Shown here piece by piece: positions 31,054 to 41,556 of a stretch of DNA of 64,000 nt. Under the pieces are notes generated by a model. It was not told where the DNA came from, searched no databases, and worked only from the letters and a program-made list of their open reading frames with translations. Source of the stretch: Burkholderiales bacterium (GTDB taxonomy: Bacteria; Pseudomonadota; Gammaproteobacteria; Burkholderiales; SG8-39). Position 1 is the first letter of the stretch. Every line of letters begins with the position of its first letter. The position numbers were made by a program, and so were the translations under genes. The DNA is taken from positions 676-64,675 of the forward strand of contig DASRKB010000237.1 of the NCBI GenBank assembly GCA_035649175.1, written 5' to 3'.

Positions 31054-32268
31054 CTAACGTGAAGGCTGGGCGATCGGGGCCTGATCTCGAAGGAGCGGAC
31101 GTTCGTCGATCGGGAGGTGAATCAGCGCGGCGATGACCCCGAGCGCGGCGGCGACCATCCACGCGAGGTCGTAGGACCCGGTGCGGTCGAAGAGCCAGCC
31201 GCCCGCCCAGGCGCCGAGGAAGCTGCCGAACTGGTGGCTGAAGAACACGAAGCCCGAGAGCATGGCGAGGTGGCGCACGCCGAAGATCTGCGCCACCACC
31301 GCGTTGGTGAGCGGCACCGTGCCGAGCCACAGGAACCCCATCAGAACGCCGAATGCCATCGCGCTGACCGTACTGAGCGGCAGGGCCATCAGCATCACGA
31401 TCACCACCGCACGCGAGAAGTAAAGGAGCGACAGCAGGTTCTTCTTCAGGTAGCGGCTGCCGAGCCATCCGGCGGCGAAGCTGCCGAAGACGTTGAACAG
31501 GCCGATGAGCGCGAGCGCCATCATGCCGTCGCGCGCGGTGAGGCCGCGGTCCATGAAGTACGAGGGCAGGTGCGAGCCAATGAAGACGACCTGGAAGCCG
31601 CACACGAAGTAGCCCGCGACAAGGAGCCAGAAGCTGCGCTGTGCGCGCGCCTCGGCGATCGCCTCGCCGACCGTCTGCTTGTGCGCCTGCGGAGCGGCGT
31701 GGGGACTCTCCATGAGCGCCGCGGAAAGCGGCGCCATGACGAAGGCCGCGCCGGCCAGCACCACCAGCGCGAAGGCCCAACCGCTCGCCGAGATCAGGGT
31801 CTGCGCGCCGGGAAGGAGCGCGAACTGGCCGAAGGAGGCGACTGCGCCGGCGACGCCGAGCGCCATGGTGCGCTTCTCCGGAGGCGTGTGCCGCCCGATG
31901 ACGCCGTAGACGATGCTGAACGTCGTGCCGGAGAGCCCGAGACCCACGAGCAGGCCCGCGGAGAAGTAGAGCTCGCCCGGCGTGCCCGCCGTGGACATGA
32001 GCCAGAGGCCCGCACCATAGAGGAGCGCACCTCCGAGCACGACGCGCCCGGCGCCGAAGCGGTCGGCGATCATCCCGGAGAAGGGCTGCGCGAACCCCCA
32101 GATCAGGTTCTGGGCCGCAATCGCCAACGAAAACACCTCGCGGCCCCACCCGCGGTCCACGGACATCGGCTGCAGGAAAAGCCCGAAGCCGTGACGGATG
32201 CCCAGAGCGAAGAACAGCACGAGGCTCCCGAAGACGAGCACCGTCCCTGGGGTCAGGCGAAGCTTCAT
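31054..32268 (-). CDS. MFS transporter (oxalate/formate-antiporter-like monocarboxylate type), 404 aa
   Basis: C-terminal part of track ORF 31054..32418, from the ATG at 32268 (MKLRLTPGTVLVFGSLVLFFALGIRHGFGLFLQPMS...). It has 12 predicted hydrophobic spans. ATGA overlap with the upstream cyclase stop. Confidence 0.85.
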   Translation of the reverse strand: MKLRLTPGTVLVFGSLVLFFALGIRHGFGLFLQPMSVDRGWGREVFSLAIAAQNLIWGFAQPFSGMIADRFGAGRVVLGGALLYGAGLWLMSTAGTPGELYFSAGLLVGLGLSGTTFSIVYGVIGRHTPPEKRTMALGVAGAVASFGQFALLPGAQTLISASGWAFALVVLAGAAFVMAPLSAALMESPHAAPQAHKQTVGEAIAEARAQRSFWLLVAGYFVCGFQVVFIGSHLPSYFMDRGLTARDGMMALALIGLFNVFGSFAAGWLGSRYLKKNLLSLLYFSRAVVIVMLMALPLSTVSAMAFGVLMGFLWLGTVPLTNAVVAQIFGVRHLAMLSGFVFFSHQFGSFLGAWAGGWLFDRTGSYDLAWMVAAALGVIAALIHLPIDERPLLRDQAPIAQPSR

Positions 32269-33350
32269 TTCGTAATGGACTTGAGGCGGAAGGCCGGCAC
32301 GGGATGCTTGAAGCCGCGCAGCTCGAGCGGGCCCACCAGCTCGGTCACCGTCATGTGCGCGACGTCGTGCTCGGTTTGCGCGTCCAGGAGAATCTCGCCT
32401 GCGTTCGCCGCGCCACACAGGCGCGCCGCGAGGTTGGGCACGTTGCCGATCGCGGCATATTCCCAGCGTTGCTCGAAGCCGATGATCCCGAGGGTTGCCT
32501 CGCCTTGCGCGATACCGATCCCCAGGCCGACCTCGTGCCCGAGCCTTTCCCAGGCCGCGGAGATCGGCGTGAAGGCCTTCTGCAGGGCGAGCGCCATGCG
32601 CACCGCGCGCGCGGCCGGCTTCTCGACCGGCAACGGGTCATTGAAGAAGATCATGACGCCGTCCCCGGCGAAGTGCTCGAGCGTGCCGCCGAACTCGTCG
32701 ACCGTTCGCCCGAGCGTGGCGTGGTAGGAGCGCAAGAGATCCATCACCTCGTCCGGGTCGGCGCGGTCGGTGAAAGCGGTGAATCCGCGCAGGTCGAGGA
32801 ATACCGCCGTGATCTCGCGCCGGTGGGGCTCGAGCATCCCCTCACCGCCCGCGACGATCGCCTCGGCCACCGGGCGGGAGAAGAAGCGCTTGAGCCGCCC
32901 CAGGCGCTCGAGCTGCGCCACCTGCTCGGCCACGCGCTCCTCGAGCCTCGCGTTCAGCACCTTGAGCTCGTCCTGAAGCGACTTCACGCGCAGGAGCGCC
33001 TTCACGCGAGCGAAGAGCTCCTCCCAGTTGACCGGCTTGGAGATGAAGTCGTCCGCGCCCACTTCCAGCCCCTTGATGCGCTCCGCTTGGGCTTCGAGCG
33101 AGGTCACCAGCACCACCGGAAGAAGCGCCGTCGCGGCGTCCGCGCGCAGCCGCCGGCACAACTCGTAGCCGTCGATGCCCGGCATCAAGATGTCGGAGAC
33201 CACCAGGTCCGGCCGCGCGACGCTCACGCGCTCGAGCGCGTGCGCGCCATCCTGCGCGGTGAGCACGTCGTACCCGCGTGCCTTCAGCACGCCGGCCATC
33301 ATCTCCACGCTGGCGCGCTGGTCGTCGACGACCAAGATGCGGGCAGTCAC
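32265..33350 (-). CDS. response regulator receiver fused to class III nucleotidyl cyclase (paralog of 21984..23012), 361 aa
   Basis: C-terminal part of track ORF 32265..33674, from the GTG at 33350 (VTARILVVDDQRASV...PDLVVSDILMPGIDGYE...). CHD is HRREITAVFLDLRGFTAFTD...GTLEHFAGDGVMIFF...EYAAIGNVPNLAARL. GTGA overlap with the ADH stop. Its coiled-coil linker is about 19 aa longer than in the paralog. Confidence 0.88.
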   Translation of the reverse strand: MTARILVVDDQRASVEMMAGVLKARGYDVLTAQDGAHALERVSVARPDLVVSDILMPGIDGYELCRRLRADAATALLPVVLVTSLEAQAERIKGLEVGADDFISKPVNWEELFARVKALLRVKSLQDELKVLNARLEERVAEQVAQLERLGRLKRFFSRPVAEAIVAGGEGMLEPHRREITAVFLDLRGFTAFTDRADPDEVMDLLRSYHATLGRTVDEFGGTLEHFAGDGVMIFFNDPLPVEKPAARAVRMALALQKAFTPISAAWERLGHEVGLGIGIAQGEATLGIIGFEQRWEYAAIGNVPNLAARLCGAANAGEILLDAQTEHDVAHMTVTELVGPLELRGFKHPVPAFRLKSITK

Positions 33351-34453
33351 GGGAAAACGATCACCCCGCGAGCATTCTTCCCCGATTGCATGTCGGCGAA
33401 CGCCTGCGGCGCATCCTCGATCGAGTAGCGCCGCGTGATGAGCTCCTCGAGCTTGAGGCTTCCCGCCTGGTAGAGCGAGAGCATCCGCGGGAAGTCGACG
33501 CTGGGCACGCAGGAGCCGAAGTAGCTCCCGGTGAGCGTCTTCTCCTCGAAGACCAGCGTCATGCTGCGCACGGCGGTGCTCTCGGTGGGCTTCGCCACGC
33601 CCACCACCACCGCGGCACCGCCGCGGCGGATCGCCCGGTAGGCCGCACCGGCGAGCTCGCCCGAGCCCACGCACTCGAAAGCGTAGTCGGGTCCGCCCCC
33701 AGTGAGCTTCTTCAGGGGTTTGACGATGTCTTCACCCTGCTTGACGATGAGGACATCCGTCGCCCCGAAGCTCATGGCCATCTGGAGCTTCGCCTCGAGC
33801 GTGTCGATCGCGATGATCTGCCTCGCGCCTGCGATGCGCGCGCCCTGGATCACCGAGAGACCCACGCCCCCGCAGCCAAGCACAGCGACGCTCGAGCCCG
33901 GCTCGATCCTCGCGGTGTTGAACACCGCCCCGACCCCGGTCGTGACCGCGCAGCCGACGAGCGCGCCGCACTCCATGGGGATCTTGGGATCGATCTTGAT
34001 GAGATTCTCGGCCGACACCGTCGCGTACTCGGCCATCGCCCCGCAGCCGGAGAAGATGCCGAGGGGCTTGCCAGCGGCGTCATGCACGCGCGGCGTGCCT
34101 TCCAGCGGCGTCGTGAGGGCCTTCCCCTGCTCGAGGCACAGCACCGGGCGGCCCGCCACGCAGAAGCGGCATTTACCACACATGTAGATGAAGGAGAAGA
34201 CGACGTGGTCGCCCTTGGCGAGCCCCGCCACGGCCTCGCCGACCTCCTCCACCACCCCTGCGGCCTCGTGGCCGAGCACCAGCGGCAGCGGCAGCGCGAT
34301 GGTGCCGTTCGCGGCGGACAGGTCGGAGTGACACACGCCGCAGGCGCCGATCTTGACCGTCACCTCGCCTCGCTTCGGCGGGTCGACGACGACGGTTTCG
34401 ACGGCGAACTTGTTCAGCTCGCGGCAGAGGACCGCTCGGGCTTTGCGGGACAT
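33347..34453 (-). CDS. zinc-dependent alcohol dehydrogenase (class III-like MDR), 368 aa
   Basis: Track ORF 33347..34474. GACGVCHSDL, GHEAAGVVEEVG, structural-zinc motif CGKCRFCVAGRPVLC, Rossmann VAVLGCGGVGLSV. I prefer the ATG at 34453 (MSRKARAVLCRE...) because it matches the usual family N-terminus. The GTG at 34474 is the alternative. Confidence 0.88.
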   Translation of the reverse strand: MSRKARAVLCRELNKFAVETVVVDPPKRGEVTVKIGACGVCHSDLSAANGTIALPLPLVLGHEAAGVVEEVGEAVAGLAKGDHVVFSFIYMCGKCRFCVAGRPVLCLEQGKALTTPLEGTPRVHDAAGKPLGIFSGCGAMAEYATVSAENLIKIDPKIPMECGALVGCAVTTGVGAVFNTARIEPGSSVAVLGCGGVGLSVIQGARIAGARQIIAIDTLEAKLQMAMSFGATDVLIVKQGEDIVKPLKKLTGGGPDYAFECVGSGELAGAAYRAIRRGGAAVVVGVAKPTESTAVRSMTLVFEEKTLTGSYFGSCVPSVDFPRMLSLYQAGSLKLEELITRRYSIEDAPQAFADMQSGKNARGVIVFP

Positions 34454-34500
34454 TTTTATCAGTATATCCGGCACTAGCCCTTTGGTAGCATCCAGGAACC

Positions 34501-35925
34501 ATGCTGATCCGAGACAAGCTCTTCATCGACGGCCAATGGGTCGGCCCTTCAAGCAGCGAAACGATCGATGTGCACGACGCCGGCAACGGCAAGGTCATGG
34601 GACGCATCCCCGCCGGCGCCGAGAAGGACGCCGAGGCTGCGGTCCGGGCCGCCCGGTCGGCGCTCGAGACATGGAAGGACATTCCCGTCGAAAAGCGGGC
34701 CGAATACCTCGACAAGATCTCCTCCGGCCTGAAGGCGCGCGCCGACGAGATCGCGCGCACCATCGCGCGGGAAGTCGGCATGCCGCTCAAGATGGCCTCG
34801 CGCATCCAGGCCGGGCTTCCGATTGCGAACTTCGCGAACTACGCGAAGCTCGTGAAGGAGTTCAAGTTCGAGGAGAAGGTTGGAAATTCCCTCGTAGTGC
34901 GCGAGCCGGTGGGCGTGGTGCTCGCCATCACGCCCTGGAACTACCCCCTGCACCAGATCGCCCTGAAGGTGGCGCCGGCGCTCGCGGCCGGCTGCAGCGT
35001 GGTGCTCAAGCCCTCGGAGGTCGCGCCGTTCAACGCCTTCATCCTCGCCGAGGTGATCGAGGCGGCCGGGCTGCCCAGGGGCGTCTTCAACCTCGTCACG
35101 GGCACCGGTCCCGCCGTGGGCGAGGCGCTAGTAAAGCATCCCGACGTCGACATGATCTCCTTCACCGGCTCGACGCGCGCGGGCAAGCGGATCTCCGAGC
35201 TCGCCGCGCAGGGCGTCAAGCGGGTAGCGCTCGAGCTGGGTGGCAAGAGCGCCTCGTTGATCCTGGACGACGCGGACCTCGCGCAGGCGGTGAAGGGCAC
35301 GGTGAATGGTTGCTACCTGAACTCCGGCCAGACGTGCACCGCGCTCACCAGGATGCTGGTGCCCGAGAGCCTCTATCCGGAGGCGGCAAGGCTCGCGGGC
35401 GAGGCTGCGAAGAGTTTTGCCGTGGGTGATCCATTGAATGAGAACTCCAGGCTGGGCCCGCTCAGCTCCCAGGCGCAGCTCGAGCGCGTACGCGGATACA
35501 TCAAGAAGGGAATCGCCGAGGGCGCCGAGCTCGTCGCGGGCGGCGCCGAGCCGCCCGAAGGCGTGCCTGCCGGCGGCTACTACGTGCGCCCGACGGTGTT
35601 CGGCAAGGTGAAGAACAGCATGACCATCGCGCAGGAGGAGATTTTCGGGCCGGTGCTCTCCATCATCCCCTACAAGGACGAGGAAGATGCGGTGCGCATC
35701 GCGAACGACACGGTGTACGGGCTTGCCGGCGCAGTGTGGTCCAAGGACGACGCGCGCGCGCAGCGCGTGGCGCGCCGCATGCGCGCGGGGCAAGTCGACG
35801 TGAACGGCGGCGCGTTCAACATGAACGCCCCCTTCGGCGGCTTCAAGCAATCCGGCCACGGCCGCGAGGCCGGCGTGTACGGGCTCGAAGAATTCCTGGA
35901 ATATAAAGCCCTGCAACTAAAGTGA
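34501..35925 (+). CDS. NAD(P)-dependent aldehyde dehydrogenase, 474 aa
   Basis: Track ORF 34501..35925. [18 protein letters not shown], catalytic Cys region [19 protein letters not shown]. An AGGAA RBS is present. Confidence 0.93.
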
Positions 35926-37577
35926 GATTGCTGCGCCTCGCCACCGGACTGGTGGTCGCGGCGTTCGTCGTCGGGCACTTCCTCAACCACGCGCTCGGCG
36001 TGGTCTCGATCGAGGCAATGAACGGCATGCGCTCCGCCCTGGCCGCGGGGTGGCGCAGCCTGCCGGGCACGATCCTGCTGTACGGCTCGCTCGCCACGCA
36101 TTTCGCGCTCGCGCTCGTATCGCTCTACCGGCGCAGCACGCTGCGCATGCCGGCCTGGGAGGCCGGGCAGCTGCTGCTCGGGCTCGCGATCCCGCCGATG
36201 CTCATCGGCCACGTCGTCGGTACGCGGCTCAGCTGGACGCTCTACGGCCACCACATCGACTACGAGCGCATCGTGGGGCTGCTCTGGTCGGACTCGACCG
36301 CTGCGGCGCGGCAATCGGCGCTCCTCCTGGTCGTGTGGATGCATCTTTCGTTCGGCGTGCACTACTGGCTGCGGGTAAAGGCCTGGTACCCCACGGTGCA
36401 GCCGGTGCTCTTCGCCGCGGCGCTTCTCATCCCCGCCATCGCGCTCGCCGGCTTCGCCGCGGCAGGTGCGAGCCTGTGGCCCGGCATCGAGGCGGTGGGC
36501 GGCATGCAGAAGTACAACCTCGACCTCGCCGGGATGACCGACGCGCAGCGCGCGCGCCTCGTTCACTGGCGCGAGGGGATGACGTGGGGCTTCTGGCTGC
36601 TCCTCGGGGCGACGCTGCTCGCGCGCTGGCTGCGCCAGCGCATCGGCGGGACCTACCAGGTGCGCCACGCCTCCGGCCGCGTCATTACCGCGCCCGTCGG
36701 CCGCACCATCCTCGAGGCGATCCGCGACGCCGGCATCCCCCACGCCTCGGTCTGCGGCGGCCGCGCGCGCTGCACCACCTGCCGCGTGCGCGTCGGCGAA
36801 GGGCTCGCCGCGCTGCCGCCGCCGCGGCCGGCGGAGGCGCGCGCACTCGGGCGCATCGAGGCGCCGCCGAACGTGCGCCTCGCCTGCCAGTGCCGGCCGC
36901 GCACCCACGTCGCCGTCACCCCCCTTCTGCCCGCCGGCGCGGACGCGGCGCTCGCGCGCAACCCCCGCAGCCCGCGGGGGCAGGAGCGGCGCATCGTCGC
37001 CATGTTCGTCGACCTGCGCGAGTCGACCGAGCTCGCCGAGGGACGCCTGCCCTACGACGTGGTCTTCCTCATGAACCAGTTCTTCGCCGAGATGTACCAG
37101 GCGCTGCGGGCGACCAATGGCTACTACGCGCAGTTCCGCGGCGACGGCCTGCTCGCGCTCTATGGCCTCGGAGCCGAGCCCGCGCAGGCCTGCCGGGACG
37201 CCATCGCCGGCGCGGCCGAGATGCAGCGACGGCTCGAGGCGCTCAACGCGAGCCTCGCCGCCGACCTCGCGCGCCCCCTGCGCATCGGCATCGGCGTCCA
37301 CGTCGGCCTCGCCATCGTCGGCACGATGGGCCCGCCGGACGCGCCGATCCACTCCGCGATCGGCGACAACATCAACATCGCGGCGCGCCTGGAAGGCATG
37401 ACGAAGGCGTACGGCTGCGTGCTGGTAATTTCCGAGGACACGCTGACGGAGGCGGGGGTGGAACCGCGCGGCGCGACTTTGCACCGCGTGCGCGTGCGCG
37501 GCAGGAACGAGCGGCTCAGCGTGTACGCCGTCCAGGATCCGCGCATGCTCACGTCGGTCCGGCAAATCGGGGTCTGA
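35922..37577 (+). CDS. membrane protein - [2Fe-2S] ferredoxin domain - class III nucleotidyl cyclase fusion, 551 aa
   Basis: Track ORF 35922..37577, with a GTG start and a GTGA overlap with the ALDH stop. The N-terminal 240 aa or so has 5-6 TM segments with several His (H19, H23, H60, H97, H110/111, H141, H147). The Fer2 domain reads [13 protein letters not shown]...LACQC. The CHD reads [13 protein letters not shown]...[14 protein letters not shown]...[16 protein letters not shown]. Confidence 0.88.
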
Positions 37578-37584
37578 CCCCGAT
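37566..37584. repeat. REP-like palindrome ATCGGGGTC-T-GACCCCGAT between convergent genes (possible bidirectional terminator)
   Basis: Perfect 9-bp arms. The internal TGA (37575-37577) is the stop codon of the cyclase gene. The convergent gene stops at 37588-37590. Confidence 0.7.
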
Positions 37585-37587
37585 CTC

Positions 37588-38037
37588 CTACTTTCCCGAC
37601 AGGGTGCGCGAGAGCTGGTTGGTCGTATTGGCGAGGCGAGCGGCGAGCACGCGGATCAGCTCGAGCGCGGCGTCGGGGTTCTCGCGAATCACCTGGGAGA
37701 AAAGATCCTTGGAGATTCTCAGGGTCTCGAGCGCGGTGAGCGCCTTGGCGGTGGCGGTGCGCGGCACCTCGCCGAAGATGGCGATCTCGCCGATGATGTC
37801 GTTGCGGCCGAGCTTGTTGACCACCAGTGGGCCGCCGGGGGTGGGCACGCTGATCTCCACTTCGCCGTCGATCACGATGTAAGCGGCATCGCCCATGTCC
37901 CCGGCGTTGAACATCACCTGCCCGGGGGCGTAGGAGAGCCGCTCGGCGGAGAACACCAGCAGCTTCTGCATCGCCGGCTGGATCTTGCTGAAGATCGGGA
38001 ACTGGCGGATCAGCTCGACTTCCTGCTCCAGGCTCAT
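37588..38037 (-). CDS. stand-alone cyclic nucleotide-binding domain protein, 149 aa
   Basis: C-terminal part of track ORF 37588..38151, from the ATG at 38037 (MSLEQEVELIRQFPIFSKI...). The CNB core is GDAAYIVIDGEVEI...IIGEIAIFGEVPRTATAKAL (Arg93-Thr94 phosphate-binding cassette). ATGA overlap with the ABC gene stop. Confidence 0.88.
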   Translation of the reverse strand: MSLEQEVELIRQFPIFSKIQPAMQKLLVFSAERLSYAPGQVMFNAGDMGDAAYIVIDGEVEISVPTPGGPLVVNKLGRNDIIGEIAIFGEVPRTATAKALTALETLRISKDLFSQVIRENPDAALELIRVLAARLANTTNQLSRTLSGK

Positions 38038-40688
38038 GCGGCAGTCCTCCTCTTCAGCTCCGTGAACTTGCCCTGCTCCGCGAGGCGCCCACGTTCCATC
38101 ACCAGCACCATGTCGAAGCGCTCGGCGTACTCCTCGCGCGAGAGCGCCCATACCACCCCGGCGCCCCTGCGCTCGGCGAGCACGTTGTCGACCACGCGGC
38201 CCTGCGAGGCCGGGTCGAGCAGCGCGCCCGCGTGGTCCAGGACGAGGAGCACCGGGCGCTTGAGCAATGCGCGCACCAGCGCGACCTTCTGCCGGTCGGA
38301 CGGCGCCAGCCGCGCCCCGCCGACGCCTACGTGATAGCCCAGTCCGTTCCTCACCACCAGCGGCCGCAGGCCAAGCTCGTCCAGCAGCTCCCGCATCAGC
38401 GTCGTGATCCGCTGCACGGCGCCCGCCTGGCCGGTCACGATCTTGCCGAACAGGATGTTGTCCTGCAGGGTCGCGGCCCTGTTGTAGCGCGTCGGGTCGA
38501 AAAACTCCACCGCGTCGCGCATCCCGGCAGGCAGGTGACGCGCGAAGTGGTGGCGGGCCTCGACCACGCGAGCCTCGAAGCTCTCGTCGATGAGCCCGAG
38601 GCGGTGGCGCGCGGCGATGAGGCGGAAGGGCAGCGCGAGCAGCAGGCGCCGTTCGGCCTCCTCGATGCCACGCAGGCCGGCCTCGGTGACGCGCTTCAGG
38701 ATAGCCTCGAACTGCGGCAGGTCCTCTTGCCGGATGAAGCTGTACTGCGCGAAGAACTCGTGGCCGGGTGGCAGGCCGCTGAAGAGCTCGACCATGGTCT
38801 CGGCCACCTTGTGCCCGGTGCGCAGCACGAGGTCGTGCAACCCCGTGTCGTGCAGCACCTGGCGCACGTAGGCGTTGCCGGCGAGGTTCTCGATGTCGAA
38901 GGTGCGTCCGACCGGGGTGCCGAACAGCAGGTTCTCGGCGAGCGTCGCGTTGCGGTTGTAGTGCGCCGGGTCGAAGCGCTCGACCCAGTCCTCGATGCTC
39001 TGGGAAGCAAGGCGCTCGCGCATCTTCTGCCGCGCGGAAAGCACCTTCCCGGAGAATTGGTCGGAGTCTGCGGTGCTGCGCAAGCCGAGCTCGAACACAG
39101 TCTCCTCGAGCTCCACCACGCGCAGCAGCTCGACGATACGCGCCTCCATCTCATCCGTGCTGCCCACCCCGGCCGCGGCGTAGTCGATCCACTCGGCGTT
39201 GATGTCGAGCGGCGAGTTGCCGGTGCGCAGCGCCTCGCGCGCCTCTGCCTCGCGCGCCCTGCGCCTCGCGGCGTCGTGCTCGGGCTCGCGGATCGGCCGG
39301 TGCTTCAGGCCGTAAAGGATGTTCGAGCGCACGTCGGCGGGAAAGAGGTATGCGGGCGTGCCGACGTAGCCGATGGCGCGTCCGGTCACCGCCTCGGGGG
39401 CGCGGGTGATGTCGATGCCGCCCATCTCGATGGCGCCGCTCGTCGGCGGGTAGAGTCGCGCCACGAGCTGCGCGAGCTCGGTGGCGCCCGCGCCACTCTG
39501 CCGCGAAACGATGGCGACGTGCGAGCCAAGATCCGCCTCGAAGGAGACGTTGTCCACCACCCGGCTGCCCGCCTCGTCGACGAAGGTGAGGCCCGTGGCC
39601 CGCATCCGCCCGGCCCGGGGTAGCGGCGGATCCTCGGCGGGCGCCTGCAGCTCCGCCGGGGCGACGTCCTCCGCGGTGAACTGCTCCACCACCTGGCCGT
39701 ACTTGATCTGCACGTCGAGGCGCTGCTGGTCCCAGTCGATCAGCTCCTTCACCGGCGTGGGCAGGTCCTTGTAGGCGGCGATCACCGCCACGAGCGCGCC
39801 GATGTCGAGCCGGCCGACGATCACCAGGTAGCCGCCCAGCGCATAGAACAGGAAGGGCGTGACCTGCGATAGGAAGTTGTTGAGGAACTTGATGAGGAAT
39901 TTGCGCTGGTAGAACTCGAAGCGGATGCGGAAGATGTGCCCCAGCCGCGCGGAGATCTCGGCGCGCTCGTAGTTGGAGGTGTCGTTGGCGTGGATCTCGG
40001 CGATGCCGTCGACCGACTCGGCGATGCGCCCGGCGAGCGCCCGCGCGGTGAGCTGGCGCTCGCGGCCGAGCACGAGCAGGCGCCGGCGCAGCCGCGGGAT
40101 CAGGTACGCCTGCACGCCCACCACCCCCAAGGCGGTCAGGCCGAGCGCGACGTGCTGGTACAGGATGAAGACCATCGCGGTGAGCGCCTGCCCGCCGAGG
40201 AAGAGCGGCGTGATGAGCGCCTCCCCGACGAACCCGCCGAGCGGCTCGACCTCGTCCTTGATCATGGTGGCCATTTCGGCGGCCTTCACGCGCCGGAAGC
40301 GCTGCAGCGGGAAGCGCAGGATGTAGTCGAACAGCGCATAGCGCAGCCGCCGCAGCATGCGCTCGCCCATCCAGCCCTTCATGGTGTTGATCTGGAACTT
40401 GAGCCAACCGTTCAGCACGATCAGGCCGAGGAACACCGCGCTCAGCGCGAAGAGATAGGGAATCCGCTCGAGCGCCAGCCCCAGGAAAGGGACCTTGGCG
40501 TCGGGGCTCGGGAACGCGTCGCCCTGGATCGCCTGGTTGATGATGGTCTTGGGTAGGTCGAGGGAAAGGTAATAGACGACCATGGTCGCGAGCACCAGCG
40601 GCACGATGAGCAGCTGGTCGCGCTTGCTGTAACGCAGGATGAAACCGAAAAGGCTTCGATCCACCTTGGATCCCCGGGGAACGCACAT
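38034..40688 (-). CDS. atypical ABC exporter-like protein: 6-TM ABC membrane domain + degenerate, internally duplicated nucleotide-binding domain, about 884 aa
   Basis: Track ORF 38034..40796, with the start placed at ATG 40688 (MCVPRGSKVDRSLFGFILRYSKRDQ...). A GTG 8 codons downstream is also possible. The TMD resembles type I ABC exporters. In the NBD, the Walker A position reads SRQSGAGAT (nt 39480-39506), the signature position reads LAPSD (38295-38309), and Walker B reads LLVLDH (38232-38249). An insert of about 270 aa (38502-39305) carries a second degenerate helical-subdomain copy. Confidence 0.8.
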   Translation of the reverse strand: MCVPRGSKVDRSLFGFILRYSKRDQLLIVPLVLATMVVYYLSLDLPKTIINQAIQGDAFPSPDAKVPFLGLALERIPYLFALSAVFLGLIVLNGWLKFQINTMKGWMGERMLRRLRYALFDYILRFPLQRFRRVKAAEMATMIKDEVEPLGGFVGEALITPLFLGGQALTAMVFILYQHVALGLTALGVVGVQAYLIPRLRRRLLVLGRERQLTARALAGRIAESVDGIAEIHANDTSNYERAEISARLGHIFRIRFEFYQRKFLIKFLNNFLSQVTPFLFYALGGYLVIVGRLDIGALVAVIAAYKDLPTPVKELIDWDQQRLDVQIKYGQVVEQFTAEDVAPAELQAPAEDPPLPRAGRMRATGLTFVDEAGSRVVDNVSFEADLGSHVAIVSRQSGAGATELAQLVARLYPPTSGAIEMGGIDITRAPEAVTGRAIGYVGTPAYLFPADVRSNILYGLKHRPIREPEHDAARRRAREAEAREALRTGNSPLDINAEWIDYAAAGVGSTDEMEARIVELLRVVELEETVFELGLRSTADSDQFSGKVLSARQKMRERLASQSIEDWVERFDPAHYNRNATLAENLLFGTPVGRTFDIENLAGNAYVRQVLHDTGLHDLVLRTGHKVAETMVELFSGLPPGHEFFAQYSFIRQEDLPQFEAILKRVTEAGLRGIEEAERRLLLALPFRLIAARHRLGLIDESFEARVVEARHHFARHLPAGMRDAVEFFDPTRYNRAATLQDNILFGKIVTGQAGAVQRITTLMRELLDELGLRPLVVRNGLGYHVGVGGARLAPSDRQKVALVRALLKRPVLLVLDHAGALLDPASQGRVVDNVLAERRGAGVVWALSREEYAERFDMVLVMERGRLAEQGKFTELKRRTAA

Positions 40689-40728
40689 CTTACAGTCCCT
40701 GACGGGATTTGCCGCTATAGTTGGACGC

Positions 40729-41556
40729 ATGGACCCCGCTTTCAGCGTGCGCTTCTGGGGCGTGCGAGGCTCGATCGCTTGCTCCGGCCCGCGCACCGCC
40801 CGCTACGGCGGCAACACCTCGTCGCTCGAGGTGCGCTGCGGCGAGCGGCTGCTCCTCTTCGACGCCGGCACCGGCATCCGCTACCTGGGCAAGACCCTCG
40901 AGGGAAAGAGGCTCGACGCCGATCTCTTCTTCACCCACACGCACTTCGACCATATCTGCGGCCTGCCTTTCTTCCGGCCGTTCTTCGAGTCGGGCAACCG
41001 TTTCCGGCTCTGGGCCGGGCACCTCGACGGCCGGCAGGTCACGCTGAAGCGCGTGCTGGCCGAGTTCATGATGTCGCCACTGTTTCCGGTGCCGCCGGAG
41101 ATCTTCCACGCGCGGATGGAGTACCGCGACTTCAAGAGCGGGGACACGCTCCACCCCGCCGATGGCTTCGTCGTGAGAACCGCGCCGCTCAACCACCCCG
41201 ACGGAGCCACCGGATACCGGGTCGAGTACGGGGGGAAGTCGCTCTGCTACGTCACCGACACCGAGCACGTGCCTGGCAATCCCGACCGCAACGTTCTCGG
41301 CCTCATCGCCGGCGCGGACCTCGTGGTCTACGACTGCATGTACACCGACGAGGAGTACCCGCGCTTCGCCACCTGGGGCCACTCCACCTGGCAGGAAGGG
41401 GTGCGTTTGTGCCGCGAGGCCGGCGCGAAGCGCCTCGTGGTCTTTCACCACGAGCCAGACCACGACGACGACATGCTCGACGGCGTCGCGCGAGAAGTGG
41501 ACAGGGCGCTTCCGGGGTCGCTCGTGGCCAAGGAAGGCCTGGTTCTCGAGCCGTAG
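40729..41556 (+). CDS. metallo-beta-lactamase-fold hydrolase (HxHxDH), 275 aa
   Basis: C-terminal part of track ORF 40639..41556, from the ATG at 40729 (MDPAFSVRFWGVRGSIA...LLLFDAGTG...FFTHTHFDHICGLPFF...VFHHEPDHDD). It is divergent from the ABC gene, with 40 bp between the two starts. Confidence 0.85.
   Translation: MDPAFSVRFWGVRGSIACSGPRTARYGGNTSSLEVRCGERLLLFDAGTGIRYLGKTLEGKRLDADLFFTHTHFDHICGLPFFRPFFESGNRFRLWAGHLDGRQVTLKRVLAEFMMSPLFPVPPEIFHARMEYRDFKSGDTLHPADGFVVRTAPLNHPDGATGYRVEYGGKSLCYVTDTEHVPGNPDRNVLGLIAGADLVVYDCMYTDEEYPRFATWGHSTWQEGVRLCREAGAKRLVVFHHEPDHDDDMLDGVAREVDRALPGSLVAKEGLVLEP

Follow-up and report, generated by a model that had tools for sequence, protein, structure and literature searches.

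A probable CyaC-type, redox-regulated class III nucleotide cyclase in a Burkholderiales genome

INTRODUCTION

The closest described counterpart of the gene considered here, which encodes a 551-residue membrane cyclase, is CyaC of Sinorhizobium meliloti. The gene lies in a stretch of 64,000 nucleotides from a Burkholderiales genome (contig DASRKB010000237.1 of assembly GCA_035649175.1), hereafter the window. The primary study of CyaC is reportedly that of Wissig et al. in 2019 (Mol Microbiol 112:16), known here through papers that summarize it. Three papers describe S. meliloti CyaC (SMc01818) as combining a six-helix transmembrane (6TM) domain, which holds two haem B groups, with a [2Fe-2S] cluster, and report that ubiquinone oxidizes or reduces the protein and that the cyclase is activated after oxidation (PMC10463352, PMC9552081, PMC13259868). 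The gene order given for S. meliloti is smc01817 (encoding a LysR regulator), cyaC, and cycR (encoding a TetR regulator) (PMC10463352).

A broader group with the same layout was described by Beltz et al. (2016, eLife, PMC4821796), whose cluster 1 comprises 30 alpha- and beta-proteobacterial adenylate cyclases of class IIIb, exemplified by Rhodopseudomonas palustris Q132R4. In this cluster, a ferredoxin is placed between a 6TM anchor and the catalytic domain. The anchors were described as similar to the cytochromes b of fumarate reductase and succinate dehydrogenase, with four spaced intramembrane histidines, and two haems were predicted (PMC4821796). The window protein fits this description throughout, in its alpha/beta-proteobacterial origin, six helices, four histidines, ferredoxin, and IIIb-like catalytic domain.

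We report here that the product of the window gene is very probably a class III nucleotide cyclase of the CyaC type, under redox control. If this is true, the gene lets a betaproteobacterium tie its cyclic-nucleotide signalling directly to how oxidized or reduced its respiratory chain is. The original prediction for this gene, made from the DNA letters and their translations, had proposed a haem/Fe-S relay ending in a cyclase that would link the quinone pool to cyclic nucleoside monophosphate (cNMP) synthesis. This proposal matches the mechanism published for S. meliloti CyaC. The haem/Fe-S/cyclase reading is supported but was already published for the CyaC family, and the gene does not represent a new mechanism. 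With the mechanism already in print for CyaC, the main use of the find is to annotate the gene correctly.

RESULTS AND DISCUSSION

Domain architecture and similarity to CyaC

The reading frame is open throughout, and its product consists of a 6TM anchor, a Fer2 domain, and a class III cyclase domain, in that order (Table 1), with conserved ligands, a matching fold, and similarity at the level of orthology. The Pfam matches to Fer2 and Guanylate_cyc (the latter covering residues 357-497, E 4.4e-11) both exceed the curated cut-offs, and residues 1-245 match no Pfam family. Among NCBIfam models, the protein gave partial ferredoxin-domain matches only, with nqrF and fdx_isc as the best.

Table 1. 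Positions of the cyclase gene, its domains and predicted haem-ligand codons, and the upstream gene within the window
Feature	Position	Strand	Basis and remarks
NAD-type aldehyde dehydrogenase (ALDH) gene	34501..35925	+	Pfam Aldedh, E 4e-167; upstream of the cyclase
Probable CyaC-type membrane cyclase gene, whole	35922..37577	+	551 aa, GTG start; open reading frame list and translation
6TM anchor, residues 1-241	35922..36644	+	AlphaFold (AF2) model; predicted to take the FrdC/SdhC (type B) dihaem cytochrome b fold, with one further helix, the sixth
His19 codon, transmembrane helix (TM) 1, towards the periplasmic end	35976..35978	+	Invariant, 158/158; predicted distal-haem ligand
His60 codon, TM2, towards the cytoplasmic end	36099..36101	+	Invariant, 158/158; predicted proximal-haem ligand
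His97 codon, TM3, towards the periplasmic end	36210..36212	+	Invariant, 158/158; predicted distal-haem ligand
His141 codon, TM4, towards the cytoplasmic end	36342..36344	+	Invariant, 158/158; predicted proximal-haem ligand
Fer2 [2Fe-2S] domain, residues 251-327	36672..36902	+	Pfam PF00111, E 9e-11; ligand Cys 278/284/287/322
Class III (IIIb-like) cyclase catalytic domain, residues ~351-541	36972..37544	+	Pfam PF00211; alignments to 2w01, 6fht, and 1wc0; family column counts

Comparison with CyaC was made through the Fer2-cyclase of Ensifer sp. LCM 4579 (L040), whose gene has a LysR gene upstream on the same strand and a TetR gene downstream on the opposite strand. The two proteins are 44% identical over residues 6-545 (E 5e-144), and all four histidines and all four cysteines are aligned between them. 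Compared in this way, the window cyclase has the domain order, the four histidines, and the four cysteines in common with S. meliloti CyaC. Both hosts are proteobacteria, but one is a rhizobium and the other a betaproteobacterium (a Burkholderiales-like metagenome-assembled genome). The flanking genes also differ, with an ALDH gene upstream and a cNMP-binding/ABC-like pair downstream in the window, compared with LysR and TetR (CycR) in S. meliloti.

The architecture is very common. A word-indexed search returned more than 5,360 full-length relatives, with both Fer2 and Guanylate_cyc in all matches listed, and the anchor alone gave 1,896 clusters at 50% identity. A confirmed relative was found by pattern scan in at least 584 species genomes. 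Among the matches listed, most came from Alpha-, Beta-, and Gammaproteobacteria, and some from genomes labelled Rokubacteria, Methylomirabilota, Verrucomicrobiota, and others. Set against the 30 sequences of cluster 1, a family of about 1,900 such clusters and at least 584 species genomes is far larger and more widely spread than first described.

Membrane anchor

Hydropathy and the AlphaFold model agree on six long transmembrane helices (residues 2-27, 47-70, 78-108, 125-150, 156-190, and 207-241), to which the model adds three short loop helices. The model covers residues 1-245 and was built from a 27-sequence alignment (predicted local distance difference test, pLDDT, 94.1; predicted template-modelling score, pTM, 0.88). 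Across 59 full-length relatives with 34-47% identity to the window cyclase, the number of invariant histidines is exactly four (H19, H60, H97, and H141, one each in TM1-TM4), and these four were unchanged in every sequence of a larger set of 158. Other anchor histidines are less conserved, including H23 (92% of the 59 relatives) and H147 (73%). Conservation of the anchor histidines and of the ferredoxin cysteines is far above chance. The four invariant histidines alternate in depth, which, read against the generally known haem arrangement of FrdC, would be the arrangement expected of one distal and one proximal bis-His haem.

Two separate structural comparisons point to the same group of proteins. 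Foldseek searches of the anchor model against the PDB gave meaningful template-modelling scores (0.43-0.53) only for dihaem cytochrome b subunits, namely Chloroflexus SdhC (9lay_C), Wolinella FrdC (2bs4_C, 2bs3_C, and 1qlb_C), and Desulfovibrio gigas FrdC (5xmj_C), with weak E-values (best 0.045). A second aligner, VIA-align, which is independent of Foldseek, ranked the same three proteins at the top: Wolinella FrdC (1e7p_C; Z 13.8, 192 aligned residues, root-mean-square deviation [rmsd] 3.4 Å), D. gigas FrdC (5xmj_C; Z 13.8, 174 residues, 2.9 Å), and Chloroflexus SdhC (9lay_C; Z 11.8, 182 residues, 3.3 Å). The next match, 6lum_D, followed at Z 7.6 (108 residues, 2.6 Å). Both aligners thereby match the anchor to cytochrome b chains of type-B quinol:fumarate reductase (QFR) and succinate:quinone reductase (SQR).

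These results bear directly on the original prediction, which had expected five to six transmembrane helices with conserved-looking histidines in or near them, had likened the pattern to b-type haem ligation, and had proposed a comparison with cytochrome b-like folds. Six helices were found, the histidines lie where they had been placed, and the four invariant intramembrane histidines together with the FrdC/SdhC-type fold of the model lend support to haem ligation.

Since the fold matches span model residues 1-204, the sixth helix is an addition. A five-helix cytochrome b needs an added helix of this kind if its C-terminal domain is to be cytoplasmic. FrdC of W. succinogenes and D. gigas and SdhC of Chloroflexus aurantiacus share the fold of residues 1-204 of the window protein (Z 11.8-13.8) and likewise carry histidines on the first four helices at alternating depths. 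The window anchor differs from them in its low sequence identity (14-16%), its lack of a match to the TIGR02046 model, and its extra sixth helix. It also differs in its partners: because the anchor is fused to Fer2 and cyclase domains instead of docking flavoprotein and Fe-S subunits, it probably acts as a sensor and not as a respiratory enzyme. No sdhAB or frdAB genes were found among the window neighbours, which comprise ALDH, zinc-dependent alcohol dehydrogenase (Zn-ADH), cyclase, and cNMP-binding genes. By neither sequence model nor subunit partner does the anchor belong to the type-B SQR/QFR cytochromes b. Its modelled fold suggests a relationship to the cytochrome b of fumarate reductase and succinate dehydrogenase, and the hints in sequence are weak. 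In a Pfam scan of the anchors of 27 relatives, the only matches were marginal ones to Sdh_cyt and DUF4405, with Sdh_cyt found in 2 of the 27 (best E 0.03).

Two other interpretations of the anchor were weighed against this evidence. In the first, the N-terminal domain binds no haem and does no more than hold the protein in the membrane, its conserved histidines having some other role, as could be argued from the lack of significant matches to cytochrome b sequence models. We consider this very improbable, given that exactly four histidines are invariant and stand at FrdC-like depths, that the fold match is restricted to dihaem cytochromes b, and that haem B is reported in CyaC (PMC10463352).

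The second interpretation accepts the cofactors but assigns them another stimulus, such that the haems or the Fe-S cluster directly sense a diffusible oxidant or gas (O2, NO, CO, or H2O2) and not the state of the quinone pool. In other proteins, both haem and [2Fe-2S] centres are generally known to do so. Four invariant histidines, however, imply two bis-His, six-coordinate haems as in FrdC and SdhC, which would leave no open site, and CyaC is reported to be both oxidized and reduced by ubiquinone (PMC10463352). Direct sensing of a gas or oxidant therefore seems improbable to us, and a CyaC-type response to the quinone pool remains the preferred reading.

Several further anchor positions are conserved. 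N22, R71, Y114, and W139 are invariant or nearly so across the family, and conservation reaches at least 90% at H23 and R102. Any of these six residues may contact the haem propionates or belong to a quinone site.

Ferredoxin domain

The ligand cysteines of the Fer2 domain (C278, C284, C287, and C322) are conserved in 95-97% of the 59 relatives, and C322 is assigned as the fourth ligand because C324 is conserved in only 5%. The domain had been called plant-type when first noted. That a Fer2 domain is present holds, and its four cysteines stand at the positions first noted and align with known ligands, but the type is better described as adrenodoxin/ISC. Plant-type ferredoxins space their ligands as C-x4-C-x2-C-x29-C, whereas the spacing here is C-x5-C-x2-C-x34-C. 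The 28 solved structures matched by the domain are adrenodoxin, putidaredoxin, and ISC-type ferredoxins and NqrF, and the sole plant-type-related protein among the solved matches is PnsB3 (E about 0.007). On account of this spacing and these best solved matches, the plant-type label is imprecise.

The motif itself points the same way. Ending in RLACQ, it aligns on the CGGxxxCxTCHV...RLSCQ ligand motif of adrenodoxin/ISC-type ferredoxins, and the pattern CGGxxxCxTC...RL(A/S)CQ is common to the window domain, the adrenodoxin, putidaredoxin, and ISC ferredoxins, and the NqrF domain. Judged by its motif, the domain is adrenodoxin/ISC-type and not plant-type, and all of these share the Pfam Fer2 fold. 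Unlike the soluble adrenodoxin-type carriers, the window Fer2 is built into a signalling protein of the membrane, and 34 residues separate its third and fourth cysteines.

Cyclase domain and substrate-selecting pair

The class III cyclase domain that had been predicted is confirmed by its Pfam match and by its catalytic Asp/Asp/Asn/Arg set. Alignment to Spirulina CyaC (1wc0), Cya2 (2w01), and the engineered 6fht places the metal-binding residues at Asp364 and Asp408 and the transition-state residues at Asn485 and Arg489. Class III cyclases act as homodimers. The purine-selecting pair, in contrast to that of class IIIb adenylate cyclases, is not Lys/Thr; in the window cyclase, it is Gln404/Ser478. 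In the alignment, Gln404 stands opposite Lys1057 in Spirulina CyaC and Glu in the guanylate cyclase Cya2, and Ser478 opposite Thr and Gly in these proteins, respectively. The Ensifer CyaC ortholog has Lys/Thr at the same positions.

Variation at this pair is widespread in the family. Among 158 family members, Gln/Ser was found in 53, Lys/Thr in 52, and Gln/Thr in 24, with rarer pairs in the remainder. Whatever the pair, most sequences keep the catalytic residues intact, among them 67 of the 78 with Gln. On a FastTree tree built without the two purine-selecting columns, the Lys and Gln states are clustered, and well-supported branches force at least eight switches between them. By this tree, the purine-selecting residue has flipped repeatedly within an otherwise uniform family. 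Because about half of the family has Gln, we interpret Gln/Ser as variation within the family and not as grounds for exclusion from it. The pair is common to many members and is the one feature for which the literature consulted offers no explanation.

The substrate pair raises the question of the product. An enzyme of the same architecture, and with the same redox sensing, might not make cAMP, or not cAMP alone, but instead cGMP, another cNMP, or several through promiscuity. The Gln404/Ser478 pair does differ from the Lys/Thr of Spirulina CyaC and the Ensifer ortholog, and the Gln/Ser state is recurrent and conserved, with catalytic residues intact in most Gln-bearing sequences. At the same time, eight or more Lys/Gln switches in a uniform family are more in keeping with nearly equivalent function than with a messenger that changed time and again; the window cyclase lacks Glu, the residue that selects guanine; and the readers encoded nearby have Crp-type and cNMP-binding domains of the ordinary kind. 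We therefore think a product other than cAMP unlikely. To our knowledge, no CyaC-family enzyme of the Gln/Ser type has been assayed. Rv0386 of M. tuberculosis carries a Gln/Asn pair at these positions and has guanylate cyclase side activity; the literature searched held nothing usable on Gln at the Lys position.

A more elaborate form of this idea concerns all members with Gln/Ser, which make up about a third of the CyaC family and include the window cyclase. They could be redox-regulated cyclases of altered or relaxed nucleotide specificity. In the cyclase-rich island considered here, the enzyme would then make a non-cAMP signal, with the cNMP-binding/ABC-like pair next to it as reader and a nearby metallo-beta-lactamase-fold hydrolase to remove it. 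We offer this as a speculation and would rather doubt it.

Proposed mechanism and its weak points

Taken as a CyaC-type cyclase, the window protein could work as follows. It would be held in the inner membrane by six helices, of which the first five share their fold with the dihaem cytochrome b subunit of fumarate reductase/succinate dehydrogenase of type B and the sixth returns the chain to the cytoplasm. His19 and His97 would hold the distal (periplasm-side) haem b, and His60 and His141 the proximal (cytoplasm-side) haem b. The adrenodoxin-like [2Fe-2S] domain, with its cluster on Cys278/284/287/322, would lie in the cytoplasm between the anchor and the catalytic domain. The respiratory quinone of Burkholderiales is ubiquinone. 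By homology with S. meliloti CyaC, ubiquinone and ubiquinol of the respiratory chain would oxidize or reduce the haems, and the cyclase would then make a cNMP, most likely cAMP. The neighbouring Crp-type regulator and cNMP-binding proteins could read the signal.

Several points weigh against this assignment. Whether the window protein carries its cofactors, how it responds to quinones, in which direction it is regulated, and what it makes are all drawn from homology. Full-length homology to CyaC was tested by proxy, with a congeneric and syntenic Ensifer ortholog in place of the S. meliloti sequence itself. The pairing of H19 with H97 (distal) and of H60 with H141 (proximal) follows FrdC topology and not coordinates, and may be read accordingly as provisional. 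A profile of the anchor searched against PDB sequences found only mycobacterial SdhC, at a non-significant E of 0.82. TIGR02046, the model for the type-B cytochrome b558 family, had no match anywhere in the source genome, in a search that gave matches in four named control genomes (above the cut-off in three). Because cytochrome b sequence models lack a significant match, the relationship to FrdC rests on the fold and the histidine pattern. Finally, with Gln404/Ser478 instead of Lys/Thr, cAMP is less certain as the product than it is for CyaC, and the enzyme may make another cNMP.

Gene neighbourhood

The GTG start of the cyclase gene overlaps the TGA stop of the ALDH gene as GTGA (35922-35925), and only in the closest relatives, with 72-86% identity, do the two genes stay together. 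The coupling of the two genes had been noted originally. The overlap itself is real, but the ALDH is not part of the module, and the linkage was over-read: at loci with enough upstream sequence, an ALDH gene stands upstream in only 2-3 of 74, and Ensifer orthologs have a LysR gene there. Because of this distribution, we regard the ALDH coupling as lineage-specific, and the ALDH was rejected as an obligatory partner.

The same data bear on the possibility that the anchor and Fer2 domain form an electron-transfer enzyme tied to the upstream ALDH, which might exchange electrons with quinone, and that the cyclase is of secondary importance. The GTGA overlap and its persistence in close relatives would be expected of such an enzyme, but its supposed partner is missing from nearly all of the loci counted and replaced by LysR in Ensifer, and Pfam places the ALDH among standard soluble enzymes of the NAD(P) type, which need no membrane partner. 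We give this explanation very little credence, and a redox-regulated cyclase of the CyaC type remains favoured.

The cyclase region is rich in cNMP-signalling genes, including one for a Crp-type regulator, and the neighbourhood layout recurs in metagenomic relatives of 72-86% identity. The source genome (4.3 Mb, 99.9% complete) encodes at least 21 class III cyclase domains, and a CyaC-type anchor was found in the present gene only. A second apparent Fer2-cyclase on contig C192 was rejected as a paralog. This gene (L091:490-3945, minus strand) encodes one of the class III cyclases counted above, a 1,151-aa STAND-type cyclase with a double zinc ribbon, a class III cyclase domain, AAA_16, and TPR.

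Other neighbours show their own arrangements. On the minus strand at 32265-34474, a response-regulator cyclase lies downstream of a Zn-ADH, divergent from the plus-strand unit at 34501-37577 across a gap of about 26 nucleotides. Each divergent unit thus combines an alcohol or aldehyde oxidoreductase with a cyclase, a layout also seen in one related locus (L002). On the other side, a small cNMP-binding protein (37588-38151, minus strand) is encoded just downstream of an ABC_membrane/ABC_tran-like protein, the pair spanning 37588-40796 on the minus strand. This pair adjoins the cyclase in two relatives (L001 and L002) and is a candidate reader of the cyclase product. Divergent from the pair is a gene for a Lactamase_B_2 protein of metallo-beta-lactamase fold (40639-41556, plus strand), whose homologs in the same two relatives have weak Anti-Pycsar_Apyc1 matches. 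The window protein of this fold may be a cNMP phosphodiesterase.

A palindrome, GGGGTCTGACCCC, lies at window positions 37566-37584, encoding the final residues of the cyclase and having its TGA stop at the centre. The opposite-strand cNMP-binding gene ends a few bases past it, and the palindrome may be a shared bidirectional terminator or a repetitive extragenic palindromic (REP)-like element.

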